Source: an uncultured Elusimicrobia bacterium
GTDB lineage: Bacteria; Elusimicrobiota; Elusimicrobia; UBA1565; UBA9628
NCBI GenBank assembly: GCA_903881545.1
Contig: CAIRTQ010000048.1
Coordinates: 25,914 to 89,913 of the forward strand
Reading direction: 5' to 3'
DNA: 64,000 bases
Part shown: positions 13,566 to 36,870 of the stretch, one piece after another
Position numbering within the stretch: position 1 is the stretch's first letter
How the letters are laid out: every line of letters begins with the position of its first letter
Translations under genes and position numbers: made by a program
Notes under the pieces: model-generated
Told to the model about the DNA's origin: nothing
What the model saw: the letters and a program-made list of their open reading frames with translations, nothing else
The model's database searches: none

Positions 13566-13567
13566 GT

Positions 13568-16681: not shown

Positions 16682-16727
16682 ACCCCATTCCGCACTGCAA
16701 CCTCGCGCAGTCCGTGCGCGTTATTTC

Positions 16728-17699
16728 ATGGGGACCATGCCAGCTCTCTACATCCTGGACCAGGGCGCCGCGTTGGGCAAGGAATCCGAGCGCATCGTGG
16801 TGCGCAAGGAGGGCGCCGTCATCGCCGAATTCCCACTGGCCAGGATAGAGAAGGTCCTGCTCTTCGGGGCCGTGCAGGTTTCCACCCAGGCCATCGGCGC
16901 TCTCCTGGAGGCGCGCATCCCCACGGCGTTCTGCAATTACGGCGGCCGCCTGCGCGGCGTGCTGACGCCGGTGGGGGGCAAGAACGTGTTCCTGCGCGTC
17001 TGCCAGGTCCGAAGGCTGGATGATGCGCCCTTCCGGCTGGCCGCGGCCAGGGAGAGCGTCCTGGCGAAGCTCCGCGGCCAGCGCTCCTTCCTGGCGCGGT
17101 CCGAGCGCAACGAGCCCGGCGGCCGCGAGGCGGCCCTGGCCGAGCTCGCGCGGCTGCTCGCGGACGCTGCCGGGGCCGGGGGGATCGGGGTCCTGCGGGG
17201 CGTGGAGGGGCGCGCCGCGGCGGTCTATTTCCGGCAGTTCCCGGGCATGCTGAAATCGGATTGGGGGTTCCCCGGCCGCCGCCGCAGGCCGCCCACGGAT
17301 CCGGCCAACTGCCTTCTTTCGTTCGGTTACGCGGTGCTGACCAACGACGCGGCCTCCCTGCTGGCGGGGTATGCGCTGGACCCGTGCATCGGTTATCTGC
17401 ACGAACTGGACTACGGCAGGCCCTCGCTGGCCCTGGACCTCATCGAGGAGTTCCGCGTCCCGGTGGTGGACCGTACCGTGGTGCGGTTCCTGAACCTGAA
17501 CATGGCGGGAAGGGATGATTTTGAGGTTTTTGAGGATGGGCTTCGCATGACGGATGCCTGTCGGAAGGCCTTTCTGTCCGAATACGAGCGCACTGTGCGG
17601 GATGGCAGACTGCGTGATGCGATGCGCAGACAGATCGAGGCGCTCTGCCAGGCGATATTGGAAGGCAGAGGCTATCATGCCCATCGCTGGGAAGCATGA
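16728..17699 (+). CDS. cas1: Cas1 integrase
   Basis: LYILDQGAALGKESERIVVR...IEKVLLFGAVQVSTQAIGALLEARIPTAF is the typical Cas1 N-terminus. Precedes cas2 and the array. Start chosen at the internal Met of the 16479 ORF. Confidence 0.85.
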   Translation: MGTMPALYILDQGAALGKESERIVVRKEGAVIAEFPLARIEKVLLFGAVQVSTQAIGALLEARIPTAFCNYGGRLRGVLTPVGGKNVFLRVCQVRRLDDAPFRLAAARESVLAKLRGQRSFLARSERNEPGGREAALAELARLLADAAGAGGIGVLRGVEGRAAAVYFRQFPGMLKSDWGFPGRRRRPPTDPANCLLSFGYAVLTNDAASLLAGYALDPCIGYLHELDYGRPSLALDLIEEFRVPVVDRTVVRFLNLNMAGRDDFEVFEDGLRMTDACRKAFLSEYERTVRDGRLRDAMRRQIEALCQAILEGRGYHAHRWEA

Positions 17700-17976
17700 G
17701 CTTCTGGTATTGGTGGTCTATGACATCAGGTCGCCGAAGCGGCTGGCGCGGATGGGCAGGCGCATGAAGGATTTCGGGGTGCGCGTGCAGAACAGCGTTT
17801 TCGAGTGCCGTCTGGCGGTCTCCGAGTATCCGAGGCTGAAGGATGCGGCGCTGAAGATCGTGGACCCGCGGGTGGATTCCCTGCGGTTATACCGGATCTG
17901 CGCGGCCTGCGAAGAGAAGGTGGATTTCCTGGGCGCGGAGGTGCCGGGATTGCCTGACGATGTGCTTGTCCTGTGA
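17677..17976 (+). CDS. cas2: Cas2
   Basis: MPIAGKHELLVLVVYDIRSPKRLARMGRRMKDFGVRVQNSVFEC is the canonical Cas2 fold signature. Overlaps the end of cas1. Confidence 0.8.
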   Translation: MPIAGKHELLVLVVYDIRSPKRLARMGRRMKDFGVRVQNSVFECRLAVSEYPRLKDAALKIVDPRVDSLRLYRICAACEEKVDFLGAEVPGLPDDVLVL

Positions 17977-18200
17977 CCGCCAACTTGCCCGAGGTAGAAA
18001 GGGGGGGGTGGCTAGCGGTCTGGGTCTTGCGGGATTTCGGGAATGGAGTTATGCTTGTGCGGTCGGTGCAATTCTGCGGCGGCGTTGTTGGGATCGGTTG
18101 TCGGAGCAGGTTGGAGGTGGGATTGTCGGAATGGAATAGAGAGGGGTTAGCGGAATGGGGCCGAATTGGAGTGGGATTAGTAGAGGTATTTTGGGCTGCG
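17977..18200 (+). promoter_or_regulatory. Putative CRISPR leader
   Basis: Locally less GC-rich segment between cas2 and the first repeat, with reiterated GGAATGG-like short motifs. Confidence 0.45.
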
Positions 18201-19336
18201 GTCGGAAAGAAGTGACTCCCTGATAAGGGATTGAGACCCGTAACTTCTCTCTCTGTTGCTTCGTCATAGTTTCTCGTCGGAAAGAAGTGACTCCCTGATA
18301 AGGGATTGAGACGGACTTGGCCTGCGCTATGAGACTGCGGGCGAGGGTAGTCGGAAAGAAGTGACTCCCTGATAAGGGATTGAGACCCTCGAACTCGGCG
18401 TCCGATAGGGGGACGATGCCGGTCGGAAAGAAGTGACTCCCTGATAAGGGATTGAGACCGAGTGATAGACATCGACTCGCGCTTGGCGGCTATGTCGGAA
18501 AGAAGTGACTCCCTGATAAGGGATTGAGACCTGGCTTCGGCTCGATATTTAGCGCTCGGTAATGTTGTCGGAAAGAAGTGACTCCCTGATAAGGGATTGA
18601 GACTATCGCCGTGGCGCGCATCTGCGCCAAGGTGGCCGTGTCGGAAAGAAGTGACTCCCTGATAAGGGATTGAGACTTCGAAGAAGCCGCCTGCTTCACC
18701 ACATATCTGACGCGTCGGAAAGAAGTGACTCCCTGATAAGGGATTGAGACGACCCCGTCCGGATCATTACTTGTGTAGCAGTTCATTTGTCGGAAAGAAG
18801 TGACTCCCTGATAAGGGATTGAGACCACGCCGCGCTCGCCGCGCTCCACGCCGCGCTCTCCGCGTCGGAAAGAAGTGACTCCCTGATAAGGGATTGAGAC
18901 TTATTGCCATATAGAAGACCACAGCCGCTTTGATGGTCGGAAAGAAGTGACTCCCTGATAAGGGATTGAGACACCGTCTCGGGCCAGGCCGGATGCTTTC
19001 TCACAAAGGTCGGAAAGAAGTGACTCCCTGATAAGGGATTGAGACCTGGAAAGAGTGTGTTGTCCCCTTGCTATGTCCAAGTCGGAAAGAAGTGACTCCC
19101 TGATAAGGGATTGAGACAAGGCAGAGCCTTCACCGATCCGGACGACGTCCGTCAGGTCGGAAAGAAGTGACTCCCTGATAAGGGATTGAGACGAAGGAGG
19201 CGCGTCTGATTGGGCGTGAACGTGTAGTCGGAAAGAAGTGACTCCCTGATAAGGGATTGAGACTCGCCGCCGAGCCACACGCCGCCGCGCCACTCGCCGG
19301 TCGGAAAGAAGTGACTCCCTTATGCTGTACAGGCCT
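18201..19336 (+). CRISPR. CRISPR array: 15 full copies plus 1 degenerate terminal copy of a 37-bp repeat GTCGGAAAGAAGTGACTCCCTGATAAGGGATTGAGAC, with 34-38-bp spacers
   Basis: Exact repeat copies start at ~18201, 18276, 18350, 18422, 18494, 18567, 18640, 18714, 18789, 18864, 18936, 19009, 19081, 19156 and 19227. A truncated, diverged copy starts at ~19300. The repeat has an internal hairpin (TCCC TGATAA GGGA) and a 3' ATTGAGAC handle-like end. Leader side and orientation are consistent with cas1-cas2 upstream. Confidence 0.95.
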
Positions 19337-19355: not shown

Positions 19356-21140
19356 ATGATGGTTAAGCGCGGATGCCCCGTGCGCCAGTCAAGGAGGAGT
19401 GCAATCATAGCCGCCAAAACAGTTCGGGCGCTTCTGCATAAAGCCGCCGCATCCGACCCCGCCCTGCGCGCCGCCCTGCGCGATCGCCGCCTCGACCGCG
19501 CCCTCGGCGAGATCCCGGCCGAGCCATTCATCCTCTCCACCAAGACCGACCCGAACCAACTGCAGTACTTCTTCGCCGGCAAAAAGGCCACCTTCGTCCA
19601 CCGTTTCCCGCATAACGTCTCGGTAGGCGCCCCCGGCCAGGCCGTCCTCGCGCTATCGGCGCTCAGGCTCAAGCCCGGCATGTCCGTGCTCATGGTCGGC
19701 GCCCGGGGCGGCTTCTGGGAGGCGCTCATCATGAGCATCTTGGGGCCCCGCGGGCGTTTGGTGGTCGTCGAGGCCGACGGCGAGGCCGCGCGGGCCACCA
19801 TCCGCAACCTGCGGCGGACCCACCGCGACGGCGGCGTGCTTGTAGTCCCGGACGATTACCCCCTGCGGGGCTTCCCCGTGGGCGCGCCCTACCACCGCAT
19901 CCTGATTTCGGCCGCCATCGAAGCCCCGCCCCGGCCGCTGATCGCGCAGTTGCGGCCGGAGGGCGAACTGGTCGCGGCGATAGAGCGCGAGGGAGGGCAG
20001 ACCCTCTGGCGCTATGCCGCCGGTGAGAAGGCGCAGCTACTGGGTCCGATCCAATTGCCTTCCTTCCTGAAGAGGGACGAATGCGGCCTGTGGCGGCTGC
20101 GCATCGGCCAGAGCGGCAAGGAAGGCGGGCTTCGCCGGCTCGATTTCACCCTGGAGACCCCGGGCGAGACCGTTGCGGTGCGGGCCCGGGCGCAGTTGTC
20201 ACGTTCGTGCGCCGAAGAATGGAGACGCGACCTTGCGGCGCTCCTGCGCGTCGATGCCCCGTCCGCGCGCGGGCAGGATCTCAGACAGCGGCGGATCGAG
20301 AAGATCGGCCGCCACATCTGGACGCATCTCCTGCCCCGGGAGATCCGGGAGAAGCTCTCCCGCGCGGAGACGGCGCGCGGCTTCATCATGCTCTGCTCGG
20401 ATGAGGACGAGGTGCCCTGGGAGCTGACCATGGTCCCGGGGACCGGCGGGGCGCGCGACAAGCACCTCTGGGAGCGCAGCATCGTGTCCCGGCGGCCCCA
20501 AGCCTCGGCCCTGCGGCTGTCAGGAGGCTACGCCTGGCGGCCGCTGAGCGCCCTGCTGGCCTTCACCCCGGGCCGCGGTTTCGGCGGGGAGGCGGAGACG
20601 CGCGAGGTCCGCCGCATACTCGAAGGCGCGGGCGTCGGCGTCCGCGTGGCGCGCGGCCGCCGCGAGCTCGACGTGCTGCTCGCCGAAAGACGGCGCTTCG
20701 ACATATTCCATTTCGCGGGCCACGCCGAGATCGATCCGGCCTGCGCCCGGCATAGCCGGCTGTGGCTCGACGAGCCCATCACGGCCGGGGAACTGCGCAA
20801 CCGCATGGAAGGGGTGGGTGGGGCGAGCCTGGCGTTCCTCAACGCCTGCCGCTGTGCGGGCGGGAAGGGGAAGGACGGCTTCGGCAGCCTGCTCAGCGTG
20901 TTCCTCGACTGGTCCGAGACCGCGGTCGGGCCGCTCTGGGAGGTCTGCCCGTTCGGGGCCCGCAAGGTCGCCAGGACCTTCTATAAGCGGCTCGTCGAGG
21001 GGCACTACATGGGCCACGCCCTGCGCGCCGCCAAAGGCAAGACCCGCAACGTCTACGGCGACCGGGACCTGACCGCGAGCTGGGCCGCTTATGTCCTCTA
21101 CGGCGACCCCGCCCGGGCCCTCTTCCCCCTGCCCGACTGA
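19356..21140 (+). CDS. Fusion of a PCMT-like (protein-L-isoaspartate O-methyltransferase fold) domain and a CHAT-family protease
   Basis: The N-terminal half aligns in pattern to the PCMT family (APYHRILISAAIEAPPRPLIAQLRPEGELVAAIE...LGPIQLPSF), but the SAM glycine motif is degenerate (LMVGARGGFW). The C-terminal CHAT dyad is FHFAGHAEID (His) and AFLNACRCAGG (Cys). Start at the internal Met just past the array. Confidence 0.6.
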   Translation: MMVKRGCPVRQSRRSAIIAAKTVRALLHKAAASDPALRAALRDRRLDRALGEIPAEPFILSTKTDPNQLQYFFAGKKATFVHRFPHNVSVGAPGQAVLALSALRLKPGMSVLMVGARGGFWEALIMSILGPRGRLVVVEADGEAARATIRNLRRTHRDGGVLVVPDDYPLRGFPVGAPYHRILISAAIEAPPRPLIAQLRPEGELVAAIEREGGQTLWRYAAGEKAQLLGPIQLPSFLKRDECGLWRLRIGQSGKEGGLRRLDFTLETPGETVAVRARAQLSRSCAEEWRRDLAALLRVDAPSARGQDLRQRRIEKIGRHIWTHLLPREIREKLSRAETARGFIMLCSDEDEVPWELTMVPGTGGARDKHLWERSIVSRRPQASALRLSGGYAWRPLSALLAFTPGRGFGGEAETREVRRILEGAGVGVRVARGRRELDVLLAERRRFDIFHFAGHAEIDPACARHSRLWLDEPITAGELRNRMEGVGGASLAFLNACRCAGGKGKDGFGSLLSVFLDWSETAVGPLWEVCPFGARKVARTFYKRLVEGHYMGHALRAAKGKTRNVYGDRDLTASWAAYVLYGDPARALFPLPD

Positions 21141-21142
21141 GC

Positions 21143-22114
21143 TTAGGCGGAGGTTCCCAGCAGGCCTGCGGTCAGCGTCGCGGCGTCGAGCAGCCTGCGG
21201 CCGCGGACGATGCGCATCGCGCAGAGTTCGCGGGTCGCATTCTTGAGCAGAAGCAGGATATCCGCGGGCGGGCGGTGCATGCGGCGCGCGATCTGCGCCG
21301 GGGAAAGGCCATCGACCAGGAGCATCTTCAGCGCGGCGCTTTCGGCCGGGTGGTCCTCGGCGAGGGCCTCAAGGTGCTCCTCCTTCAGGATGAAGTGGCC
21401 GCGGACGTAGTCGAGCGCGGCCTTGGCCGTGGCGAGGTCGTAGCCCATCTCGCGCAGAAGGGCCGCTGAGCCTCGGGTCACCAGCAGTTCGGTGTCGTCG
21501 CGGTCCATGATCGGGCCCGCTTCATCGTGCGGCACGCGCAGGACGTGCGTCAGGAACAGCGCGAGCTGGTAGTTTTCGTTCTTAAGCGCGTAGAGCGCAT
21601 CCATCACCTCGCGCCTGAGCCGTGCGACCCAGAGAGCTTCGAGCGGCGGCAGGTCCTCGGCGGAAGTGACCTCCGCCAGCTCCCGCTGCGCTCCTTCCTC
21701 GGTTGATATCTTGCCGTTGAGCGAACGGGCCCTGACGATGATTTTTCCATCGTCCTCGTCGGATCCGGACTCCCTTTGGGGCCGTTCTTCGCTGCTGTAG
21801 ACGCGGTACTGGGTCCGGGTGAAATTGTACGCGACCGTATCGGACCAGGAGAGGAAATTGCCTTTCTCCGGGTTCCATTTCTCGTTACGGATCTGGAACA
21901 GGACGTATGCCTCGGCGGCCTTGATGTGGAGCTTCAGATCCAGGAAGAACGCCTTTCGGTCGCTCGGATGGAAGATCCTGAGCATGGCTTTCTTGACGGA
22001 GGCTTCCAGGCCCGGGCGCATGAGAGCCTTCAGGGATTCCTCGCCCCGGCGCTTCCTGTTCGAATAGCTCCGGGCGAGAGTGTTCGCCCGTTCGTGGTCC
22101 CTAGGCATGGTCAT
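21143..22114 (-). CDS. Atypical sigma-70-family factor
   Basis: Region-2-like FLSWSDTVAYNFTRTQYR and region-4-like HTH LSPAQIARRMHRPPADILLLLKNATREL, with a ~100-aa acidic insert between them. Tail-to-tail with the CHAT gene. Confidence 0.45.
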   Translation of the reverse strand: MTMPRDHERANTLARSYSNRKRRGEESLKALMRPGLEASVKKAMLRIFHPSDRKAFFLDLKLHIKAAEAYVLFQIRNEKWNPEKGNFLSWSDTVAYNFTRTQYRVYSSEERPQRESGSDEDDGKIIVRARSLNGKISTEEGAQRELAEVTSAEDLPPLEALWVARLRREVMDALYALKNENYQLALFLTHVLRVPHDEAGPIMDRDDTELLVTRGSAALLREMGYDLATAKAALDYVRGHFILKEEHLEALAEDHPAESAALKMLLVDGLSPAQIARRMHRPPADILLLLKNATRELCAMRIVRGRRLLDAATLTAGLLGTSA

Positions 22115-22246
22115 CCTCCTGAACGATAGGACATTTTACCAAGTTGCAGTCTGCCGCGTTCTGCGGATTTGCAGGGTGCGCGGAGGCTGGTAAAATGCTT
22201 TCATCGGGACAGGATGCCGGCCCAACTGACATAAAGGAGCAGACCC

Positions 22247-24709
22247 ATGCCTACCAACGCCATACGTGCCCGCCGGCCGGCCGAAGCCGTTGTTTCGTTC
22301 ATTCCTCTGGGCTCCGTCGGAGACATCGGCGCCGGCTGCCATTATCTGAAGTTCTCGGGCACCCCGCTCCTGCTTGACAGCGGCATGATGTCGGAATGCT
22401 CCGCGGGCTCCGGGCTTCCCGCCTACGACCGCGTCGGGGGCCTCGCCGATGTGGAGGCCATCGTCATCAGCCATGCCCATCACGACCATATAGGAAGCCT
22501 GCCCATCACGGCCCAGCGCTGTCCCAAGGCCAAAATCGTCATGACCGAGGCCACCCGGAAGATCGCCCTGCTCATGCTCGCCGATTCCGGCAGGCTCATG
22601 GCCAAGAGGGCGGCGGCCGACGATGGCGGCGGCAAGCCGCCGCATGCCGGGCTTTATCAGGAGGACGCCCTGCGCAAGCTGTTCGAGGAGAGGGTCGTGA
22701 CTGTCGCCTATAAGGCGCCCCTCGCCGTGGGGGGCCTGACCGTGAGGCTCTTCGACGCCGGGCATGTGCTCGGCTCGGCCATGGCGCTGGTCAGCGACGG
22801 CCAGGCGAGCGTGCTCTACACGGGCGACTTCTGCGACCAGCCGACCATCCTGCACCAGGGGGCTGATTTCGCCTCGGTGGGCAAGCCCGACATCGTCATC
22901 ACCGAATCCACCTATGGCTCCGACATGGGCCGGCACGACCGCGCCGAGACCGTGCGCAAGCTCGGCCAGGCCATCAGCGCCACCATCGCACGGGATGCCA
23001 TAGCCCTGATCCCCGCCTTCGCCCTCGGCCGGACCCAGGAGGTCCTGTCCGCTATCCTCGCCCTGCAGAAGAGGGTGAACCTGCCGGCCGATGTCCCCAT
23101 CTATCTTCGCGGCGGGATCAGCCGCAAGATAAACGATATTTACGAAGGTTGTGAGTGGCCGGAGTTCGATGCGGGGCATGGCCCGATCGGCACAGGCGCC
23201 GGCATCGTCATCGCCACGAGCGGCTTCCTGACGCCGGGCACGGCGTCGTTCGGGATAGCGTCGACCATCGCCCCGAATTCGGCCAACGCCATCATCTTCC
23301 CCAGCCTTTATTGCTCCAAGACGAGCTATTACAAGAATTTTATCGAGGCGCTGCAGCCTAAATGCCGGATGGAGGAGGTGGACTTCTCGGCGCATGCCAA
23401 GGGATCGGGCATCGTGGAGAATATCTCCGGCCTGAAGCCGCAGAGCGTCATCCTGGTGCATGGCGGTAATGCCCAGCGGGCCGCCCTCCAAAAGGCTTTC
23501 CAACAGCGCGGCATCACCGCCTTCTATCCCGCCTCGGCGGGCGATGAGATCCTGGCCGTCAAGAGCGGCGGAGCCTGGAGTGTGCAGTGGAGCGCGGACA
23601 TGGAAGCCGTCATCGTGACGGTCGGGACCTCGGCCCTGCGTTCCTTCGAAAAGAAGCACGGCGGCCGGGCGCCGGAATCCGTCGAGGAGCTCGCCGGGTT
23701 CGTCGCGGGGAGTCCCCGAAACTGCGCTGAGATGAACACCATCAGCCGGATGCCGCCCCAGGGCCCGCCGGCCAAACGCTTCTTCTATCTGCTCGCCTCG
23801 GCCGCGGCCAAGGACTCCGGCATGCTCTGCGCGCAGGCGTTGGCCCTGCACCTGCAGGATGCGGGCTTCCGCGTCAGTATCTCGCCCGTCGACGGGCTCG
23901 AGATGAACGCCCGCCGGTTCCGGGACAAAGGGCTGCCGAACCTGGTGGACGCGCTCATCTCGATCGCCCTGCGCCATCCCCGGGCGCGCATAGTGGCGAC
24001 CGGCGGCTTCAAGGCGACGACGGCCTTCGCCACCCTCGTGGGGGCCTGCCTCAATCTCGAGGTCCTTTATGTGCACGAGGACATGTCGTCGGACGACCCG
24101 CTGGTGCGGATGCCGGCTTTCCCGGCGGTCTTCGACTCGAACCTGGTGGCCTTCTACGCCAGCGCGATCGAGGCCGTGGTGAAACACACCGACCGTCAGC
24201 TCGCGGAGAAGCTCTGGCGCAAGCTGCCGCCTCAGCTCCAGTCGCTTTTCGACCGGGACCGAAACCTGGCTTTGTCTCCCATGGGTCGGGTGCTGTGGGC
24301 GGCGCATCGCCGCCTGCAGGCCGCGGCGCAGGCCGCCGCGGATCCGGGGCTGAAGGGCGCGGAGAAGTTCGGCTGGCCGAAGGAGGCCTGGGTGATGCCG
24401 GGGGTGTGGGAGCGCGGGGAGGATGGGACCTTGACGGTCCGCGACGCCTGCTTCGAGACTTTGCGCAACCGCCTGCGGAACCACTTCCTCGTGACGCATG
24501 TGCGGGTCTACCCGCCCGAAGAGGGAAAGCCTGCGGCCGAGGCCCCTCTGATCAAGCGCTTGAGCGTTAAGCGCAAGAAGATCGACTGCTATTTGCGCGC
24601 CGGGAAGTTATCCCAGAAGCTGAGCATCTTCGTCGAGCCTCCTTTCGAGCATGTGGTCGTGTCCTCTATCGGGGTTGACCTGGAGTGGAAGCCGCTGTCT
24701 GATCTGTAG
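22247..24709 (+). CDS. beta-CASP metallo-beta-lactamase (MBL) nuclease fused to a C-terminal CARF domain
   Basis: MBL motif ISHAHHDHIGSLP and a beta-CASP-type FSAHAKGSG. CARF motifs downstream: VIVTVGTSALRS and IVATGGFKATTAFATLVGACLNLEVLYVHED, which closely parallels the Csm6 CARF DLTSGTKAMS...VVYVDN. Confidence 0.6.
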   Translation: MPTNAIRARRPAEAVVSFIPLGSVGDIGAGCHYLKFSGTPLLLDSGMMSECSAGSGLPAYDRVGGLADVEAIVISHAHHDHIGSLPITAQRCPKAKIVMTEATRKIALLMLADSGRLMAKRAAADDGGGKPPHAGLYQEDALRKLFEERVVTVAYKAPLAVGGLTVRLFDAGHVLGSAMALVSDGQASVLYTGDFCDQPTILHQGADFASVGKPDIVITESTYGSDMGRHDRAETVRKLGQAISATIARDAIALIPAFALGRTQEVLSAILALQKRVNLPADVPIYLRGGISRKINDIYEGCEWPEFDAGHGPIGTGAGIVIATSGFLTPGTASFGIASTIAPNSANAIIFPSLYCSKTSYYKNFIEALQPKCRMEEVDFSAHAKGSGIVENISGLKPQSVILVHGGNAQRAALQKAFQQRGITAFYPASAGDEILAVKSGGAWSVQWSADMEAVIVTVGTSALRSFEKKHGGRAPESVEELAGFVAGSPRNCAEMNTISRMPPQGPPAKRFFYLLASAAAKDSGMLCAQALALHLQDAGFRVSISPVDGLEMNARRFRDKGLPNLVDALISIALRHPRARIVATGGFKATTAFATLVGACLNLEVLYVHEDMSSDDPLVRMPAFPAVFDSNLVAFYASAIEAVVKHTDRQLAEKLWRKLPPQLQSLFDRDRNLALSPMGRVLWAAHRRLQAAAQAAADPGLKGAEKFGWPKEAWVMPGVWERGEDGTLTVRDACFETLRNRLRNHFLVTHVRVYPPEEGKPAAEAPLIKRLSVKRKKIDCYLRAGKLSQKLSIFVEPPFEHVVVSSIGVDLEWKPLSDL

Positions 24710-24822
24710 CGGGATTGGCGCCTGCAGCCTGCCGTCCGGCCTGCCCGTTCATATGGGCAGGCAGGCATGGAGGTCCCCCGAAATCTTGGAGAGTGCCTAG
24801 GGCAAGAACTGGATGGCTGGCC

Positions 24823-25641
24823 TTATGGCACGGCGTGACACTGTTGAAACTGCTGATGAATGAGGTGTCGCAGGTTCTTATCCAGCGCATCGCCGATCTG
24901 CCTCCCCCAGGTACACCATTGAGCATTCCCAACTCCTTCTATGGGCCTTCGTGGATGCGGCAATACATTCCCTCCGTTGGGAAGTCGGATGGCTTCAGGA
25001 AGAAATCCATTATGCTTTTGCATTTGGGGCACATCGCCGTACGGAATAATCACTACGTTATCCGGGACGGATTGCGGTAAGACCCCGTCGTGCCCTACGC
25101 GCATCGCGACTGATTGGTTTATATACTCATCATAATCCATGTGGAATAACGCAGGGCCGCCGGCATCAATGTACGCACCGTTGGAATGGTTGGTAAGAGG
25201 GCATGGGAATAACTCCGCAAGCATTACTTCGCATGTTATAGCTGAGCGGCCCAAGAAGTCTCGCTGATAGAGCCTGCGAATCGCAGGCGGGGGGGGACTA
25301 TCCGGCTCGTAGCCTGCAATGCCAGCTAGAAGAACAATGAGCTTGTCCCAGGTGGGCTGGAGTGTCGGGAGGTGCGCCAGAACCTGGTTTTGAATTTTTT
25401 TGCAGGCCTCTTTAAATTCAGGCCCATCGGGATAATGGCGCAAATATTGCTCATGGAGTTCCCGGACATCTCCGCAGAAACCTGGTGCGGGATTCTCTGC
25501 ATTTTGGTGGCCTCGATATAATTGCGTCAGGACTTTAAGACGATAATTCACCTCTGCGGGAATCGTTACCCGTTCTTCCAATCCTAAAAGCCATATCCGC
25601 GCTTCTCGTCGTCCATAGCCGATGAAATGGTTTAGTGGCAC
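24823..25641 (-). CDS. Hypothetical protein (lower-GC segment)
   Basis: 272-aa ORF with a non-repetitive translation and no recognisable motifs. Confidence 0.3.
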   Translation of the reverse strand: MPLNHFIGYGRREARIWLLGLEERVTIPAEVNYRLKVLTQLYRGHQNAENPAPGFCGDVRELHEQYLRHYPDGPEFKEACKKIQNQVLAHLPTLQPTWDKLIVLLAGIAGYEPDSPPPPAIRRLYQRDFLGRSAITCEVMLAELFPCPLTNHSNGAYIDAGGPALFHMDYDEYINQSVAMRVGHDGVLPQSVPDNVVIIPYGDVPQMQKHNGFLPEAIRLPNGGNVLPHPRRPIEGVGNAQWCTWGRQIGDALDKNLRHLIHQQFQQCHAVP

Positions 25642-25658
25642 AATCCCTCCTCAAGGTT

Positions 25659-27779
25659 TTACGCCGCACTCCCCACCAGCTTAAACGCCGCCCAATGATA
25701 CGGATGCGGATGCGCGCGCATCACCGCCAACTGCGCCTGCCGTAACGCCTCCGCCTTCCGCTTCCCCTCGGCCAGATGCTTGTAGAACGCCGTCACCAGC
25801 CGTCGGGCCACCGCGTCCTCGATGTCCCACAAGGTCACCACCACCGACCGCGCCCCGGCCATCAAGAACGCCCGGTGCACGCTCTCCACCTCGTCGCAGC
25901 CCCGGTGCCGCCCCTGCGCCGTCTTGCAGCAGCTCAGAAACGCCAGGTCCAGCCCCGACAAAGGCAAGTCCAAAATCTCATTCACGCGGAGCAAGCCGTC
26001 ATCCCCATCGTGCTCCGCCAGGATCAGGTGCGAGCCCAAGGCGTCGTCCGGCGAAAACTCCCCGTGGCAGGCGATGTGCAGAAGGCCGCAATGCCGGCAA
26101 AGCGCCAAAGCCTTCTTGTTCGCCTCAGTCCCCACGAATACCTTCGCGCCCGGGAACACCTTGGCGATCTCCGCGGCCTCTTCCTCGGCGTGCGCCAGCC
26201 CGCCCGTAGGATTGGCCAAAGCCAGCAGGCCTTTCCGCGAAGGCCGCGGATGGCTTGAGGCCGCCAGCATGGACGCATGGGGCAGATAGCTCACCGGCAA
26301 GCGCTCCAGCAGCGGCTTGCCGTCAGCCAAAGGCAAGGCCGCGAAAGGCACATCGATGAGAGCGCCGCTCGGCACTACATGCAGACAGGAGGCGGCGTCA
26401 ATCTCATCAGCCACAGGCGCGATCAAGTCCTGCGCCAGGCGCTTCAAAGCCCAATTGCAGAATTGCAGGTTCTTGTCCGTCTGCGCTTGGCGCAGGAAGC
26501 CCTTGATCTGTCCGACCTTGGCGGTCAGGGCCTCCGGGGCCATTTCGATGCGGCGGGCGGCCAGGCCCTTATTGCTCACCGCGAAGATGGACAAGGCGTG
26601 GCGGCCCAGGTGATAGTCGAGAAGAAGTTCGCCTTCGGCAAGCCGGGCCGAAAGCTGTTTGGCTGTCAGAACGGCCTGCGGCTTGACCTTGGCATCGTCG
26701 CTGGTCCGCGAGCGCAACTGCTCGATGAAGACCCGCGCCTTGCAGCGTTGGGAAAGCTCGAGGCCCAGCTCCGGCCGGTCGAGCTGATGGGCCAGGCAGA
26801 TCCCCAGGTCGTAGATGCCGAGCTTGCCCTTCTGGTAGCCGATCCGGCTGTCGTCCGTGGAGTATGTCTCCCGGCCGGATTCCATGATAGCCACGGCCTT
26901 GAGGCATTCCTCAAGCGCGGGCTCAAGCTGGCCTCGGTCGCGCAAAATCTTGGCGAGATGGTAGTTCTCCCATTGGCTCGGGGTATCGTTCTCGGCGTTC
27001 ATTTCCATGGACTGGCGCAGGATCGCCTCGGCCCGGTCCAGGTAGCGCTTGGCGGCCTTTGGATCGGACTCGCGCAGGAATTTGCTCCAGGAGCGGCACA
27101 CCCGGGCTAGCTCGCGCAGGGCCTTGGCCATCGAGCCCTTGGACCTCTCGTCCTTTATCCGCTCAAAGGTATCCAGGGCTTTCTTGAGGTGCTCCTCCGC
27201 ATTGGAAAGGCTCACCTTGGTCTTGGGCCTGTGCCGAGCCCAGATGCGCCCGATCGACCGATAGAAGAGTGCCTCGTAGCGGGTCCATCTATCATCGGCG
27301 CCCCAGGTTTTTTCCAGGTGGCGGAAGACGCTGAGCCCGTTGCTGCAGGCGGCCATCTGCTCCTCTTCCGTGGCGCCGCTCTCGCCCATGGCGCGCCAGG
27401 CCTGCATCAGCCATTTGCAGTTCTCTTGATTGGTTCTGGGCAGGGGCTTGAGCCATTCGAGAGCCTTGAGGGCCGAATTCCGGGAAACACCCTCATGGTT
27501 GAGCGTGCCGCCGAGCATGGAATGCCCCACCCGGGCTTTGCCTGCTTCCAGCCCCATCTTCATCTCTTCAAAGATAGGGACGGCGGCCGCGAAGAGCTGA
27601 TAGGAGCTTTCCAGCCCCTCCGCGATCTCCCGCTCCTCCTTGTCGTTCAAGGCGAAGTACAACTTCCAGCCCGCGTTGTAGGCGGCCTTGGCGCTGGCCG
27701 CGGTGGGGGAACTGCTGCAATCTGCGATGAGCCGGTCCGACTGCCCTTTGTCGGGCGGTTCTTGAGGCATGGCGCTCAA
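25659..27779 (-). CDS. TPR-CHAT protease (Csx29-like architecture)
   Basis: N-terminal TPR-like helical repeats. The C-terminal CHAT dyad is LLHIACHGEFSPDD (His) and LAFLSCCKTAQG (Cys). Coupled to the upstream sigma gene (27776-27779 overlap). Confidence 0.65.
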   Translation of the reverse strand: MSAMPQEPPDKGQSDRLIADCSSSPTAASAKAAYNAGWKLYFALNDKEEREIAEGLESSYQLFAAAVPIFEEMKMGLEAGKARVGHSMLGGTLNHEGVSRNSALKALEWLKPLPRTNQENCKWLMQAWRAMGESGATEEEQMAACSNGLSVFRHLEKTWGADDRWTRYEALFYRSIGRIWARHRPKTKVSLSNAEEHLKKALDTFERIKDERSKGSMAKALRELARVCRSWSKFLRESDPKAAKRYLDRAEAILRQSMEMNAENDTPSQWENYHLAKILRDRGQLEPALEECLKAVAIMESGRETYSTDDSRIGYQKGKLGIYDLGICLAHQLDRPELGLELSQRCKARVFIEQLRSRTSDDAKVKPQAVLTAKQLSARLAEGELLLDYHLGRHALSIFAVSNKGLAARRIEMAPEALTAKVGQIKGFLRQAQTDKNLQFCNWALKRLAQDLIAPVADEIDAASCLHVVPSGALIDVPFAALPLADGKPLLERLPVSYLPHASMLAASSHPRPSRKGLLALANPTGGLAHAEEEAAEIAKVFPGAKVFVGTEANKKALALCRHCGLLHIACHGEFSPDDALGSHLILAEHDGDDGLLRVNEILDLPLSGLDLAFLSCCKTAQGRHRGCDEVESVHRAFLMAGARSVVVTLWDIEDAVARRLVTAFYKHLAEGKRKAEALRQAQLAVMRAHPHPYHWAAFKLVGSAA

Positions 27780-29167
27780 CCTTTTATTGCGTCGCGGCGC
27801 AGGCGCGCGTAATAGCGGTCGCGCTCCGCGCCGGAAAGCCCGCGGGTGGGGGAGCTCTGGCCCTGGGGCGGGGTGCGCATGGCCGCGGCGAGGACCGGCT
27901 CTGTGATGTCGAAGCGTTTCATCAGGCGCTTGAGGAGTCCGGCGGTCAGCAGGCCGGCAGGAGCGGTGTCCGAGAGGATGGCCATGCAGTCATCTTCCGT
28001 GATTCCCAGCCCCTTGGCCAAAGTCGCGGGGTCGCCATCCACGCGCGAGGTGATGAGCTCGCCCAAGGACTGCCGCTTCTCGCTGTCGCCGGAGAAGCCC
28101 AGGGCCACGGCCACGGCGCAGAGGTCGGCCAATTCCTGGGCGCCCGGCTCCACTGCGCCGGCGCGTGTCGCTGGAGCCATGTCCGGGTATTGGGCAAGGG
28201 CCTGCTCCACGCTCTGCCATAGCCAGTCGTCAAGCTTGGGGTCTTCGGCGGCGGGCAGGGCGGGCTTGGCCCGCTTGACCTTGGCCTTGGAAAGGGCGAT
28301 AAGGGCTTGGCGCAGGGTCGCGAGCGCCTGGCGGGGTTCTTGGCGCAGGCCTTCGGCCAGCTTCCCCACGTTGAGCGGCAACTGGCTGGCGAGCTTGAGG
28401 GCCTTCTTGTGCGCCGGGGCCTCCACCAGTTCGACATCGGAGTCCCGGAGGTCCATCCTGGACAGGACAAGCGCTTTTAGTTTGTCGAATCGGGCGTCCT
28501 TGTAATCGGGCAGGGCGCAGAACTTCTGGTGGATGGCAACGCAGGCCCTACGGAAGTGGCTCGCCAAGGTCGCGCGGGGCATTTCGAAGATGGCGCTGAG
28601 GACCTCGTCACTGTGCCCTAAAAAGACCCTGCCGACCCAGATCGCGGCCGCTGTCTCGTTGGCCAGACCGCGCTCGGCGCAAAGGATTGCGTTGAGCATG
28701 TCCATTTCCATGGCCACGCCCACCGGCTGGTCGCAGTAGGCCTGGGGCTCCGCTCTCCGGGAGCGGGGTCTTTCGCTCTGCTCCTCGTCCTCTTCGTCGA
28801 GGTCATACTCGTAGGGGAGCTTTTTGCGCTTCATCGTGTCGAGAAATGCATTCTTGGCAACGGAGAGGGCATAATTCTTGAAATTTTCCGGTTCGTACTG
28901 CTTCTTCTTGAGGGCGCGGGATATGTTGCCCAAGGTGACGCTGAGAATATCGCCGGGGTCTATGTAGGCAGGAACGCCGCTTACGCCGCCGGCCAGGCGG
29001 GAATCCCGTACCTTGGAACATATGAAGCCTTCGACGCAGGCTTGGGCCAGTTTGAGGATTTTGTTGAGCTGGTCTTCGTCAGGCTTCTTATAATAGAGGG
29101 CGATGAGCGCGTCGGCCTCTTTCCCAAAATCCGAATAGATGCTGTTCGCCATAGCTCTCCTGTTCAT
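27776..29167 (-). CDS. ECF/sigma-70-family factor with a ~230-aa C-terminal extension
   Basis: Region 2 is ENFKNYALSVAKNAFLDTMKRKKLP. Region 4 HTH is ETAAAIWVGRVFLGHSDEVLSAIFEMPRATLASHFRRA. A long extra C-terminal region follows. Confidence 0.55.
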   Translation of the reverse strand: MNRRAMANSIYSDFGKEADALIALYYKKPDEDQLNKILKLAQACVEGFICSKVRDSRLAGGVSGVPAYIDPGDILSVTLGNISRALKKKQYEPENFKNYALSVAKNAFLDTMKRKKLPYEYDLDEEDEEQSERPRSRRAEPQAYCDQPVGVAMEMDMLNAILCAERGLANETAAAIWVGRVFLGHSDEVLSAIFEMPRATLASHFRRACVAIHQKFCALPDYKDARFDKLKALVLSRMDLRDSDVELVEAPAHKKALKLASQLPLNVGKLAEGLRQEPRQALATLRQALIALSKAKVKRAKPALPAAEDPKLDDWLWQSVEQALAQYPDMAPATRAGAVEPGAQELADLCAVAVALGFSGDSEKRQSLGELITSRVDGDPATLAKGLGITEDDCMAILSDTAPAGLLTAGLLKRLMKRFDITEPVLAAAMRTPPQGQSSPTRGLSGAERDRYYARLRRDAIKG

Positions 29168-29249
29168 CCAATTTAACCACTTGGACAGAGGAAGTCAAGG
29201 CCATGGTCCTATGTCTCGACGGCAAAGGAGAGGCTTGGATTCCGGTGGC

Positions 29250-29438
29250 CTACGCACCTTCGGCTTTCTCCAGCGCCAGGGCTTGTTCCATCGCCAGCAG
29301 GGCAGCCTTGACCGCGGCATGCTTCTTCTTGCGTTGCGAAGGGGTCATCCGGTTCCAAAAATACTTGCCGCCAACCTCTAGCATGCACAGCCGTTTGATC
29401 CGAGCCTTCCTGGCTTGCGCCATTTCTCGCGGCTTCAT
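29250..29438 (-). CDS. Small basic hypothetical protein between the clpX-like and sigma genes
   Basis: 62-aa ORF, Lys/Arg-rich. Uncertain. Confidence 0.2.
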   Translation of the reverse strand: MKPREMAQARKARIKRLCMLEVGGKYFWNRMTPSQRKKKHAAVKAALLAMEQALALEKAEGA

Positions 29439-29441
29439 GGA

Positions 29442-30998
29442 TTATGCCTCGCTTAGCTTCGGCCCATCCTCGGCCTCCGGCTCAAACACCACCTCCTTAA
29501 GCCCCGCCCTCTCCGCCCCGCCGCACGCCTCGTCCCCGTTCTCGAACAAGATCGGCGCCAACCCCGCCTCCAGTATCCCCTTCAGGCCGCGCGCTCCCGT
29601 ATGGTTTTCCAACGCCCGCTCGGCCACCCACTCCAGCGTCGCCTGCGGCACCCGCAGGTCCATCCCGCTGGCCCCAAACAAAGCCCGGTACTGGCTCAGT
29701 AGATTATTCCGCGGCTCGGTCATGATGTGGACCAAGTCCTCCTTGGTCAAAGCGTCCAACGCCACCACGCTGGCGAAGCGCCCCACGAACTCAGGCGCGA
29801 AACCGTAGGCCACAAGGTCATCCGTGGTCGCCTGCGCCAGGCAACTGCCGCCTGCATCCGCCTGCTGGCTATGGCCCGCGGAAAAGCCAATCTGCCGATT
29901 CTTCTGCCTCGCCTGGATGAGCTCCTCCATCCCAGCAAAGGCCCCGCCGGCGATGAAGAGGATATTGCCCACGTTGTAAGTCGCGCCCTGATGGGTCACC
30001 GTGTCGCCCTCCAGCAGCTTCAGCAGTTCCTCCTGCACGCACCGCCCGCTGACGTCCCTGTTGCTGTTGTGCGCCCCAATGGCCTCCCTCGACGCGATTT
30101 TGTCCACCTCGTCTATGTAGATGATTCCGGTCTCCGTGCGCTTAAGGTCGTTGCCCGCGGCCTTGTATAGGGCGACCACCATCTCCTCCACGCTCCCTCC
30201 CACATAGCCCGTCTCCGTGTACTGCGTGGCGTCGCAGATCACCATAGGGACGTTCATGACCTTCGCCAAGGTCCGGCACAGGTGCGTCTTGCCCGTGCCC
30301 GTCGGCCCCAGGAGCAGGATGTTCGCCTTATGCAGTTTGTCCATGCCCTTGCGTGTCTTGTTCAGCTTGACCGTCTGCAGGTGCTTGAATACCGCCGTGG
30401 CGATCGCCCGCTTGGCGCGGTCCTGGCCCACCACATACGCGCAGAGCTTCTGATGGAGCGACCGGGGGGAACACTTGGCCGGCGGCCGGCCGGCCCGCTT
30501 GGGCTTCTTGCCCACCACGCGGTCGAGGACCGCAGGCTCGACCGTGAATTGTTCCGGCGCCCCGGAGGACTGGAACCTGTATGCAAAGCCGGGTACGACG
30601 AGCTTCTTCTTGATGAGCTTGGCGTCGCTCTGCCAGTACTTCATCAGCGCGATCTTTCCCAGATGGCTTGGGGCGCTGACCAGCTTCCGGATCACCGGAA
30701 TCCTGTTGAGCTCGCCTTCAGCGCAGACCGCCGCGTAAACGAGAATCCACAGCATCTGCACCTCGACATCGTCGAGCCTGTTCTTGCGGGCCAGCTTCTC
30801 AAGGGGAATGTCTACTCCGTCGAGCAGTGAAGCTTTGGCCTTGGCCCTGATCTCGCGATACATGGGAAAAAGGCCATTCTCGGCCGGGCTTTCGGAATCC
30901 TCCCGTCCAGGCCTGGACCGGGTCTGCTCGCGCAGGAGTTCGACGAACGCGAAGCAGTCGTTGAGATACTGCGTATTATCGGCGTAGCATTGATCCAT
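29442..30998 (-). CDS. ClpX-like AAA+ unfoldase with a non-canonical N-terminal domain (no zinc-binding domain)
   Basis: Walker A LLGPTGTGKTHL. Also TGYVGGSVEEMV, Walker B IIYIDEVDKIASR, GGAFAGMEELI and LDALTKEDLVHIMTEPRNNLLSQYRALF, all ClpX hallmarks. The first ~190 aa lack the C4 zinc-ribbon. Confidence 0.7.
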   Translation of the reverse strand: MDQCYADNTQYLNDCFAFVELLREQTRSRPGREDSESPAENGLFPMYREIRAKAKASLLDGVDIPLEKLARKNRLDDVEVQMLWILVYAAVCAEGELNRIPVIRKLVSAPSHLGKIALMKYWQSDAKLIKKKLVVPGFAYRFQSSGAPEQFTVEPAVLDRVVGKKPKRAGRPPAKCSPRSLHQKLCAYVVGQDRAKRAIATAVFKHLQTVKLNKTRKGMDKLHKANILLLGPTGTGKTHLCRTLAKVMNVPMVICDATQYTETGYVGGSVEEMVVALYKAAGNDLKRTETGIIYIDEVDKIASREAIGAHNSNRDVSGRCVQEELLKLLEGDTVTHQGATYNVGNILFIAGGAFAGMEELIQARQKNRQIGFSAGHSQQADAGGSCLAQATTDDLVAYGFAPEFVGRFASVVALDALTKEDLVHIMTEPRNNLLSQYRALFGASGMDLRVPQATLEWVAERALENHTGARGLKGILEAGLAPILFENGDEACGGAERAGLKEVVFEPEAEDGPKLSEA

Positions 30999-31278
30999 AC
31001 AGCCTCCAGGTCTCTATCCAAGAGAACGCTGCTGATAGGGCCGAGGTTGCAGGGACGGGTTTGGGGTCAAGGGACGCTGGCGGCTATTTGCCGTTCCATG
31101 ACCCTGCGACCCGCAAGGTCGCAGGGCCGGCGCGAGCGATTCCACTCTCGCGCCGAATTTATGAAAAGCCTTTTTCTCTTACCTCCAGCGCTGGAGGTAA
31201 ACCATCGGAAATTGATGAGAAAATAGGCGCTTTTCTTCGGGCAAGTCGCCGGATGACGATATGAGGGGCTCGGGCCTC

Positions 31279-31372
31279 GGATTTTAACCGGACAGGAGGG
31301 TTTCGGCCTGGGATTTGGGGGAGCCTTAGGATTTTAACCGGACAGGAGGGTTTGCCTGGGTTTTTGGGGAGC
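31279..31372. repeat. Tandem direct repeat (~48-bp unit, 2 copies) upstream of the HNH gene
   Basis: GGATTTTAACCGGACAGGAGGGTTT...GGGATTTGGGGGAGCC occurs twice in tandem, with minor differences between the copies. Confidence 0.55.
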
Positions 31373-31450
31373 CTCGCGCCCTGCACGATGCTTTTGAGGC
31401 GAAGGCGCAGGATAGGGGGAACTATTCTCGGGGTCATTCGTATATTCAGC

Positions 31451-32662
31451 ATGGACCTCGCCCGGATTTCTGATGAGGCGCTGATGGGCAAGGTGGAGGC
31501 GCTGGCCGAGACCGAACGCTTCAGCTTGATCGACTTCCTCATCCATCTGGGTGAACTCGACCTGCGCACCGCCTGCCAGAACAGGGGCTATGCGTCGGTC
31601 TTTGCCTACCTCACCCGCCACCTGGGCTATTCAGAAAGCGACGCCGTAAGGCGCATCCGAGTCGCCCGCGCGGCGCGGAAGTACCCGTCGGTACTGCGCA
31701 TGCTTGCCAGCGGCGACCTGCACCTGGTCGGCGTGGCCATGCTCGAGCCGATCCTCACCTCCGACAACCATGAGCGGCTGTTGCGTCAGGCCTCACGCCG
31801 GAGCACGCGGGAGGTGGAGCGCCTTGTCGCCGGGCTGGCTCCCGCCGCAGTCGAACCGCGCGACCGCATCCGGCCCCTTCCCGCGTCTTGCGCAAGCGGC
31901 GCCGGCCGGCCTTCGGGAGATGCCGCGCCGCTCGGCATGGAACCATCGCCCTTGCCAAGCGCCGGACTTGCGCTACCGGTTGACCTTGTCCTTGCCGCCG
32001 GACCCGCCTCGTCTTGCACCCCGGCTGCCCCCGTCATTGCCGCCGGACCCGTTACGCCTTGCGCGCCGGCAAGCCCGGCAAGGGATCGCGTGGTGTTCAC
32101 CTTTGCCGCGGGCGAGCAGGTACAAAGTTGGTTCGAGGAGGCCCGCGACCTGCTCCGGCACCGCTTCCCCATGGGCCGCATGGAAGATGTGATCGGCGAA
32201 GCCCTCAGGCGGCTGGTGGAGGCCGAGCGCCGCGCCTTCCTCGCACTGCCGTCAGCGAAGCCCCTGCGCCCGCCGTCAACTCAGCACCGCGGTCCTTCTT
32301 CTCCGGAGCGCAGCGGACCTGCGCCCGTGCCGGCTGCAGGCTCCTCGCCTGAGAGCCGCTATGTCCCGCGGCGGGTCAAAGACGAGGTTTGGCGCCGGGA
32401 CTCTGGCCGGTGCGCTTATGTCAGCGCGGACGGGGTCCGCTGCGGCGAGACGGCTTGGCTGGAATGGGACCATGTCGTGCCGCGGGCCATGGGCGGAGCC
32501 TCGAACGACCCGGCGAACATCCGCCTGCTCTGCCGGGCGCACAATCAGTCAGAAGCGCGGCGGATCTTCGGCGATGCCAAGTGTTCGGGCCGCAAGACCG
32601 CGGCTGATGCAACGGCGGTCAAGAAAGGTGTTCCCGTGCCGAGCTCCGGAGCGCCTGCATGA
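31451..32662 (+). CDS. DUF222 (13E12-repeat type) HNH endonuclease
   Basis: N-terminal DUF222-like (ALMGKVEALAETERFSLIDFLIHLGELDLR). C-terminal HNH (CAYVSADGVRCGETAWLEWDHVVPRAMGG...NIRLLCRAHNQ). Confidence 0.6.
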   Translation: MDLARISDEALMGKVEALAETERFSLIDFLIHLGELDLRTACQNRGYASVFAYLTRHLGYSESDAVRRIRVARAARKYPSVLRMLASGDLHLVGVAMLEPILTSDNHERLLRQASRRSTREVERLVAGLAPAAVEPRDRIRPLPASCASGAGRPSGDAAPLGMEPSPLPSAGLALPVDLVLAAGPASSCTPAAPVIAAGPVTPCAPASPARDRVVFTFAAGEQVQSWFEEARDLLRHRFPMGRMEDVIGEALRRLVEAERRAFLALPSAKPLRPPSTQHRGPSSPERSGPAPVPAAGSSPESRYVPRRVKDEVWRRDSGRCAYVSADGVRCGETAWLEWDHVVPRAMGGASNDPANIRLLCRAHNQSEARRIFGDAKCSGRKTAADATAVKKGVPVPSSGAPA

Positions 32663-35211: not shown

Positions 35212-35482
35212 GGCCTTCCTGCAAGGCGGCGACCACCAGATGCCGGCAGATGACGGGGCCCTTGTTCATCCGCCGGACCAGCCCTCCCCAGGCCCAATCC
35301 CGGCAGGTGCAGTAGTGCCGGCCCTGGCCCGAGATGTCGAGGTACACATAGCAGGTCCGGCCGTTGTGGCGGGCGCGCAGGACGATCTCCGAGGCCTTGC
35401 GTTCGATCTCATCGAGGCGGACCTCGTCGCGGCTCTTGCGGGAGAACCACCCCGCGATGGACTTCCGCGGCATGGCGATCAT
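35177..35482 (-). CDS. SWIM zinc-finger protein (paralogue)
   Basis: HYCTCRDW...CRHLVVAAL is a SWIM signature. Overlaps both neighbours. Confidence 0.5.
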   Translation of the reverse strand: MIAMPRKSIAGWFSRKSRDEVRLDEIERKASEIVLRARHNGRTCYVYLDISGQGRHYCTCRDWAWGGLVRRMNKGPVICRHLVVAALQEGHAALLLSALAA

Positions 35483-36807: not shown

Positions 36808-36870
36808 ATCATTCCTCCTGCTTATGAAACGGCCCCGGCAGGCGCCAGGTTGCAGTCCGGCGCGATGCTC

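Follow-up and report, generated by a model that had tools for sequence, protein, structure and literature searches.

A sigma factor/TPR-CHAT protease gene pair beside a type III CRISPR locus in an uncultured Elusimicrobia bacterium: a candidate autonomous, protease-gated transcriptional switch

We analysed a stretch of 64,000 nucleotides from an uncultured Elusimicrobia bacterium (GenBank assembly GCA_903881545.1, contig CAIRTQ010000048.1, positions 25,914 to 89,913; hereafter the window), in which a sigma-like gene and a TPR-CHAT protease gene lie one after the other on the minus strand (29152-25659) in the neighbourhood of a type III CRISPR-Cas locus. The best explanation for this pair, to which we would give a probability of about 0.55, is an autonomous two-gene switch in which the protease gates the sigma factor; the mechanism is inferred from sequence and modelling. 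A preliminary description of the same DNA had assigned the pair to a transcriptional arm of the type III response, along with a second CHAT/sigma pair beside the CRISPR array and a ClpX paralogue. The comparisons reported here favour a different placement: the pair is a transcription unit of its own inside a conserved gene cluster (39607-25659) unrelated to CRISPR, and the type III locus just happens to lie beside it in this genome.

The sigma-like gene occupies 27776-29152 on the minus strand (open reading frame (ORF) to 29167, 463 aa) and encodes 458 aa from a probable ATG at 29152. Taken alone, the 463-aa ORF matched no Pfam family and no solved structure, and it stayed below threshold against TIGR02937 (22 bits vs 42.9). 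Single-sequence searches were uninformative for both sigma-like ORFs of the window, and family profiles alone worked. With the 463-aa protein as query, HMMER run exhaustively over 1.84 billion representatives returned a rare family of 18 clusters, nearly all of 450–500 aa and matched over their full length; a profile query of a word-indexed protein search recovered few of its members. The family profile (alignment A1) matched extracytoplasmic function (ECF) sigma factors in the PDB with an E-value of 5.5e-12 over positions 11-215, covering sigma2 and sigma4, and Pfam recognised Sigma70_r2 in 13 of the 18 members and Sigma70_r4_2 in 12. When an alignment-based AlphaFold model (predicted local distance difference test (pLDDT) 77.7) was submitted to Foldseek, as the preliminary description had proposed for this ORF, the top matches were all sigma factors. 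By profile, Pfam and fold, the protein is thus firmly predicted to be a sigma factor, and its sigma2 followed by sigma4 makes it of the ECF type. Family members are named ‘hypothetical protein’ or generic sigma-24 in databases and, as far as could be found, the family is undescribed.

The full domain order is an ECF-type sigma2, an acidic linker, sigma4, a second sigma4-like helix-turn-helix (HTH; residues 227-295 in the family profile), an XRE-like helical domain and lastly a tail with the TRGLS motif. With four HTH-type modules, of which the XRE-like one resembles the protease-controlled repressors CapH and DdrO, the protein might not be an RNA polymerase subunit at all: it could be a multi-HTH regulator, a PhyR-type sigma mimic, or a Csx30-like substrate releasing a toxic or regulatory fragment. 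One family member indeed matches the PhyR sigma-like model weakly, and the window protein by itself stays below the Pfam sigma thresholds. Against these observations stand the profile match, which spans sigma2 and sigma4 in the right order, and the number of members reaching Sigma70_r2. We consider it decidedly unlikely that the protein is something other than a sigma factor.

Regulation of ECF sigma factors by C-terminal extensions is common and defines a recognised class (PMC7826278). Like ECF41, ECF42, ECF56 and others, the protein has a sigma2-sigma4 core followed by a conserved C-terminal extension, with no separate anti-sigma gene (PMC7826278); unlike in those groups, the extension is built of sigma4-like and XRE-like HTH modules and not of SnoaL, TPR or Cys-rich domains. 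The main text of the ECF classification paper makes no mention of a CHAT or caspase partner (PMC7826278), and neighbourhoods combining a caspase, an ECF sigma factor and TPR proteins have been predicted in conflict systems (PMC8195603). Within the family, pairwise identity in the extension is 27–31%, like that of the sigma core, and that in the sigma2-sigma4 linker is 17%. This equal conservation of extension and core would fit a role in regulation or as a substrate. In the family alignment, the C-terminal domain has a [T/V]-R-[G/A/S] motif on either side, one at R335 and one at T441-R442, and both are near-invariant. The former lies in a linker of reduced confidence (block 328-337, mean pLDDT 58), and the latter in a segment (437-445) where the pLDDT falls below 50. 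Cleavage of the extension by a protease would be plausible.

The second gene of the pair, also on the minus strand (25659-27770, with the ORF extending to 27779), encodes 703 aa from a probable ATG at 27770. Pfam identified CHAT at 1.4e-62 and TPR weakly, in agreement with its earlier naming as a TPR-CHAT protein. Its dyad motifs, LHIACHGEF (His) and AFLSCCKTAQG (Cys), align with FHFAGHAEI (His) and AFLNACRCAGG (Cys) of the window’s other CHAT protein, a PCMT-CHAT fusion described below; the His and Cys themselves are invariant among the aligned orthologues. The dyads that had been read from the DNA are therefore present in both proteins, and with CHAT fold and dyad both are predicted to be caspase-family cysteine proteases. 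TPR-CHAT is predicted to be soluble, since its maximal Kyte-Doolittle value over 19 residues (1.46) is below the transmembrane level. The sigma-like, PCMT-CHAT and ClpX-like proteins, together with the 323-aa, CARF nuclease and 272-aa proteins introduced below, are likewise predicted to have no transmembrane segments. No anti-sigma domain was detected in TPR-CHAT by Pfam, and neither CHAT protein showed a SAVED or CARF domain in Pfam, NCBIfam or PADLOC, the only combinations found being PCMT with CHAT and TPR with CHAT.

The two genes are tightly arranged. The TGA stop codon of the sigma-like gene is separated by 5 nt from the ATG of TPR-CHAT or, if a TTG start is used, overlaps that start codon as TTGA, in line with the coupling proposed earlier for this pair. 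The comparison set consisted of 11 other family loci from metagenomes and metagenome-assembled genomes (MAGs). In all ten lineages with a visible downstream gene (window counted), the gene immediately after the sigma-like one, and in the same direction, encodes a TPR-CHAT orthologue. It is full-length in eight of them (the window, L001, L003, L004, L047, L049, L052 and L058); the L048 and L055 contigs break off within TPR-CHAT and show its N-terminal part. The sigma-like gene is followed by TPR-CHAT in L001/L002, the closest relative at 72% identity, as well as in L003, L049, L052 and the Elusimicrobia MAG locus L004/L016. The other loci show more of their surroundings: AAA, SWIM-like, sigma-like and CHAT genes in L047; a receiver domain gene, sigma-like and CHAT in L048; AAA, sigma-like and CHAT in L055; and DnaB, sigma-like, CHAT, a fused MBL-AAA (MBL, metallo-beta-lactamase) and AAA in L058/L059. 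A search for related loci with a CHAT alignment returned mostly unrelated CHAT proteins and one new full-length orthologue. The synteny strongly supports the view that the sigma-like protein and TPR-CHAT form a functional unit.

Two further observations concern the distribution of the family. A single Elusimicrobia MAG holds two different members, PJB26364.1 (CO113_04135, P0011) and PJB26120.1 (CO113_05100, P0026), so genomes can carry more than one cassette. A tblastn search of plasmids with the sigma-like protein found nothing.

Among solved structures, the best match of the TPR-CHAT profile was DdvA (8rot_B, 1.1e-5). In Myxococcus xanthus, this TPR-CHAT anti-sigma factor and the ECF sigma factor DdvS control an island of CBASS and type III-B genes (PMC11506125). 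In both organisms, a TPR-CHAT with a His/Cys dyad is genetically paired with an ECF-type sigma factor and a type III locus lies nearby. TPR-CHAT could mainly be a DdvA-like anti-sigma factor or sensor, one that sequesters the sigma factor by way of its own TPR domain and the sigma extension and lets it go, uncut, upon self-cleavage or inactivation. Autoproteolysis in trans has been proposed for DdvA (PMC11506125), and strict co-occurrence together with close gene spacing would suit a stoichiometric complex. However, DdvA sits in the membrane, with its zinc anti-sigma domain in the cytoplasm and its TPR-CHAT in the periplasm, whereas the present protein is predicted to be soluble and to have neither the zinc domain nor the one transmembrane helix of a DdvA-type anti-sigma factor. 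The partners differ as well: compared with DdvS, the sigma factor here carries an extension of ~250 aa, whose conservation recalls the self-regulated ECF groups (PMC7826278), and the conserved Arg motifs in its flexible linkers resemble substrate sites. Furthermore, DdvS drives expression of the CRISPR island, while the present cassette occurs elsewhere without CRISPR. Sequestration of an uncut sigma factor is in our view doubtful as an account of the pair.

The autonomous switch that we favour draws on where else the pair is found. Directly upstream of it, a consensus scan placed a near-consensus sigma70-type promoter-like site (TTGACT-17-TAAATT, minus strand, 29170-29198), and this block is kept in L001 (~9950-9985) despite different upstream genes. 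Beyond lies a cluster consisting of a DUF2201 metallopeptidase-VWA gene identified by Pfam (32665-33753), an AAA gene of ~331 aa (33743-34738), SWIM-like small ORFs (~34735-35482), AAA442 (35479-36807) and AAA418 (36871-38127), all on the minus strand, and an MBL hydrolase gene on the plus strand (38279-39607). Orthologues of this cluster (32665-39607) occur in L001, L004, L047, L054, L055 and L058. The AAA ATPases of ~420 aa, with two copies in the window, have orthologues in L001, L047, L055 and L058 (1e-87 to 1e-143). The window shares the ~331-aa AAA protein and DUF2201 with L001 and L004, and L054 has a fragment of DUF2201. In L058 the MBL protein is fused to AAA, its MBL half being 45% identical to the window MBL (7e-112). 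PEGA and SWIM-like proteins are further recurrent neighbours of the pair. The agreement is closest with L001, which is syntenic with window 36855-32677 and 29202-25656 and keeps both the pair and its sigma70-type promoter within the same AAA/DUF2201 cluster; the gene downstream of TPR-CHAT is not the same in the two. In this synteny comparison, cas, ClpX-like and HNH genes were all missing from L001.

More generally, phmmer with every cas protein of the window and Tandem Repeats Finder (TRF) for CRISPR-like arrays found a cas homologue or an array in none of the 11 other family loci, an absence that is firm only where ~10 kb of flank is available (L001, L004, L058/L059 and, on the upstream side, L051). 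These results, together with the cluster and promoter shared with L001, lead us to treat the pair as independent of CRISPR. The recurrent co-occurrence with type III genes that a transcriptional arm of the CRISPR response would predict was not seen among these loci, and this part of the preliminary description is not upheld.

One contig of the same species, L014, is 99.86% identical over window 29775-25418 and diverges at both ends (1-183 and 4542-5365), one of which runs into a DUF5110/glycosidase-like gene; this could be strain variation at the cassette edges or a chimeric assembly. We considered L014 as proof of a strain-specific insertion on the CRISPR side and rejected it as too uncertain, given that the contig may be chimeric.

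On the reading that we prefer, the sigma-like protein and TPR-CHAT would be made together and constitutively from the conserved sigma70-type, that is, housekeeping-type promoter. The multi-HTH extension would keep the sigma core inactive, tether it to the TPR domain, or do both. A signal, perhaps a cue relayed by the neighbouring AAA, MBL or DUF2201 proteins, would then activate the TPR-CHAT dyad; the protease would cut the extension at R335, at T441-R442 or at both, in the predicted flexible linkers; and the freed sigma2-sigma4 core would redirect RNA polymerase.

Besides the short reach of many flanks, several points weigh against this proposal. Most family loci are short metagenomic contigs, and the family has been sampled mostly from Elusimicrobia-like MAGs, which limits the independence of the lineages. 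The two Arg motifs are candidate cleavage sites inferred from conservation and predicted disorder alone. Control may also run in either direction, with the protease activating the sigma factor or sequestering it. Finally, the adjacency to a type III locus, the second sigma-like gene and the second CHAT gene beside the array become unexplained coincidences if the pair stands alone.

These last two genes lie at the end of the CRISPR array. Directly downstream of the array and on the same strand, PCMT-CHAT (19356-21140, plus) joins a PCMT-like methyltransferase domain to a CHAT protease; gene callers place its start slightly later, giving 582–586 aa. The fusion proposed from the DNA is confirmed by Pfam (CHAT 1.8e-19, PCMT 6.4e-19), and the protein matched protein-isoaspartyl methyltransferases in the PDB at 4e-13. 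Its methyltransferase motif I is partly divergent (VLMVGARGGF vs VLEVGTGSGY; consensus VLE(V/I)GTGSGY), and all NCBIfam equivalog cut-offs were missed. Searches with PCMT-CHAT gave generic CHAT-domain similarity only in the 11 other family loci (phmmer) and generic CHAT domains only in plasmids (tblastn). The CHAT domain scores 43.5 bits against the TPR-CHAT family profile and is not that of a close paralogue.

Facing it is the second sigma-like gene (21143-22114, minus), whose 323-aa product is distantly related to the 463-aa family but shorter, lacking the family’s C-terminal domain. By itself the 323-aa ORF matched no Pfam family and no solved structure, and a search for homologues among 5.8 billion proteins returned the ORF itself only. 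Its single-sequence AlphaFold model was poor and uninformative (pLDDT 41). In hhalign, residues 82-309 aligned with the 463-aa family (probability 95.8%, E-value 7.5e-9), including the second HTH, which is family-specific; hmmsearch gave 3e-7, and TIGR02937 a sub-threshold 4.8e-4. The protein is hence sigma-like by profile-profile similarity alone, which is distant but significant. With phmmer it had no match in the 11 other family loci, only on same-species contigs. The preliminary description had called both ORFs sigma-70/ECF-like genes; this stands for the 463-aa protein, and for the 323-aa protein it holds in the distant sense only.

PCMT-CHAT and the 323-aa gene are convergent, tail to tail, with stop codons 2 nt apart, so that they are not co-transcribed, and no conservation evidence joins them; the reading of these two as a pair comparable to the sigma-like/TPR-CHAT pair is not sustained. 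A functional link between them, or of either to the type III system, is not demonstrated by the sequence. A tandem duplication of one CHAT/sigma module was also considered and rejected, as the sigma-like genes are only distantly related and the orientations differ; in addition, when scored with the TPR-CHAT family profile, the CHAT domain of PCMT-CHAT ranks below almost all of the unrelated CHAT proteins taken from other loci.

Between the two CHAT/sigma pairs, at 22247-24709 on the plus strand, lies a gene that the preliminary description omitted. Its 820-aa product joins a beta-CASP/MBL nuclease to CARF7; this gene and the 323-aa gene are divergent. Pfam matched Lactamase_B, Beta-Casp, RMMBL and Cas_APE2256; in NCBIfam the nuclease part was closest to aCPSF1 (9e-45) and type VII Cas14 (7.7e-44), both sub-threshold, and PADLOC assigned the CARF part to CARF7/CARF_RelE (5e-35). 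No other protein of the locus is a cyclic-oligoadenylate (cOA) sensor. Probably a nuclease activated by cOA, it is also likely to be the actual signalling effector of the type III locus, whose cOA arm it would most simply serve. Its phmmer matches were confined to same-species contigs, with none in the 11 other family loci. Further along, 18 nt downstream of TPR-CHAT, is a 272-aa ORF (24823-25641, minus) with no match in Pfam, NCBIfam or PADLOC; it is not homologous to the L001 gene at the same position, and it matches same-species contigs only, none of the other family loci.

On the far side of the pair, three genes interrupt the synteny with L001. The ClpX-type AAA+ unfoldase paralogue (29442-30998, minus) has a Walker A motif GPTGTGKT at 231, a pore loop GYVG at 264 and a ClpP-docking IGF at 370, and from the IGF loop it looks competent for ClpP docking. 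It shares the AAA+ module and both loops with ClpX but has a winged-helix domain (WHD) in place of the C4 zinc N-domain: residues 4-90 match Pfam WHD PF22977, no CxxC zinc motif is present, and against NCBIfam ClpX the protein scores 336 bits (2.3e-100), below the 359-bit equivalog cut-off. The N-domain replacement noticed in the preliminary description is therefore real. Between this gene and the sigma-like gene is the tiny basic ORF reported with it (29250-29438, minus), whose 62 aa include 15 K/R vs 5 D/E and which gene finders call on several same-species contigs; it has no Pfam match and was not found in other family loci. The HNH-domain protein (31352-32662, plus; Pfam HNH 4e-4) was found by phmmer on same-species contigs only and in none of the 11 other loci.

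Together, the HNH, ClpX-like and 62-aa genes fill ~3.5 kb (29203-32662) that is absent from L001, which suggests a lineage-specific insertion into the cluster. By phmmer, neither L001 nor any other family locus has the ClpX-like gene, and its inclusion in the system by the preliminary description is supported in this genome and a loosely analogous locus, L054, only. In L054 (22% identity), the sigma-like gene lies downstream of genes for ClpP, a WHD protein and a 626-aa WHD-AAA ATPase (702-3523), with PF22977; this second case of Clp-type machinery near the sigma family is suggestive, not conclusive. In the Escherichia coli sigmaE pathway, ClpXP degrades a fragment of the anti-sigma factor RseA. 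The ClpX paralogue and the 62-aa ORF may likewise clear the cleaved fragment in this organism, outside the conserved system.

The type III locus itself lies in a defence-rich stretch, in a window of ~65% G+C. Its III-D-like cas operon (6137-17976, plus) encodes Cas10, RAMP/Cas7 fusions, Cas6, Cas1 and Cas2. The Cas10-like protein (6137-7567, plus; 476 aa) has no HD domain and carries CAGDD instead of GGDD as its cyclase motif; the fusions include a 540-aa double-RAMP protein and a 712-aa protein of the TIGR03986 family (4e-92), and a Csx10-like protein was matched weakly. The array (18201-19335, plus) has 16 repeats of 37 nt (GTCGGAAAGAAGTGACTCCCTGATAAGGGATTGAGAC), the last of them degenerate. 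The repeats terminate in ATTGAGAC, which, read in the light of type III CRISPR RNA handles, suggests that the array is transcribed from the plus strand. Two long minus-strand ORFs (17726-18472 and 18901-19293) turned out to be the CRISPR repeats read as protein, with recurring ‘SQSLIRESLLSD’ peptides, and were rejected as genes. Directly upstream of the operon are an AbiEii/AbiEi (DUF6088) toxin-antitoxin pair (1285-2930, minus) and a short RtcB-like ORF (4722-5708, plus), both consistent with a defence island.

Given this setting, one or both CHAT proteases could be gated by the type III system, through effector docking or cOA, and cleave the sigma extensions, with ClpX clearing the fragments. 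The genes adjoin in this genome, PCMT-CHAT follows the array on its own strand, and the 323-aa and CARF nuclease genes have a common divergent promoter region. Moreover, protease-to-sigma signalling has precedents beside type III loci in three pathways, namely Craspase/Csx30/CASP-sigma, CalpL/CalpT/CalpS and SAVED-CHAT/PCaspase/PCc-sigma (10.1101/2023.06.23.546230). Set against this are the lack of cas homologues and arrays in the other family loci, the pair and promoter of L001, which stand there without cas genes, the lack of conservation of the ClpX-like gene with the pair, and the orphan status of the 323-aa protein. We thus regard gating by the type III system as unlikely.

The comparison with the known pathways points the same way. 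The CalpL and SAVED-CHAT systems resemble the locus in that genes for a protease and a sigma factor adjoin those of type III, the switch being proteolytic. They sense cOA by SAVED, however, whereas here no SAVED or CARF domain is fused to either CHAT protease, and there is neither a Lon protease nor a separate caspase. As for the type III-E Craspase, its likeness to the cassette is that, in the vicinity of a type III locus, a TPR-CHAT is believed to free an ECF-type sigma factor, and the fused Cas7 proteins of the window are partly similar to gRAMP. Several differences set the two apart. First, the window has a Cas10-like protein and several RAMP genes in place of a single-protein Cas7-11 without Cas10, and the gRAMP model matched in segments only, at 45–53 bits vs 700. 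Second, the Csx29 model NF041237 matched TPR-CHAT over the CHAT domain only, with 43.4 bits against a cut-off of 300, and the TPR-CHAT profile retrieved no Craspase chain from the PDB at E ≤ 0.01; the link through Csx29 drawn in the preliminary description thus gives way to DdvA as the best solved relative. Third, of the components Csx29, Csx30, Csx31 and CASP-sigma, no equivalent of Csx30 or Csx31 was recognised, and it is the sigma factor itself that bears extra domains. Fourth, the cassette shows no recurrent co-occurrence with an effector, being without CRISPR in all 11 other loci. A more specific version, in which the III-D-like effector with its fused Cas7 recruits PCMT-CHAT or TPR-CHAT directly, would amount to a Cas10-containing ‘Craspase’ whose sigma substrates bring their own inhibitory extension. 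We think this very improbable; if true, type III systems would have taken over protease-to-sigma signalling from an ancestral stock that the non-CRISPR cassettes represent.

Having raised these possibilities, we return to the autonomous switch. In its working, the cassette would resemble the Craspase, cOA-protease and DdvA systems, and it belongs to none of them. Its adjacency to the CRISPR locus should not be read as functional linkage, and the CARF7/beta-CASP nuclease merits attention of its own. The proposal makes testable predictions, namely that the two conserved Arg motifs are cut sites and that the switch is sigma70-driven and pre-loaded. Release of sigma factors by proteases increasingly looks like a common output of bacterial immunity, as in Craspase, CalpL/T/S, the SAVED-CHAT cascade and DdvA/DdvS. 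If the proposal is true, the cassette would bring such protease-to-sigma signalling into a compact form confined to the cytoplasm, with a multi-HTH extension built into the sigma factor and a dedicated TPR-CHAT protease as that factor's sole constant partner.

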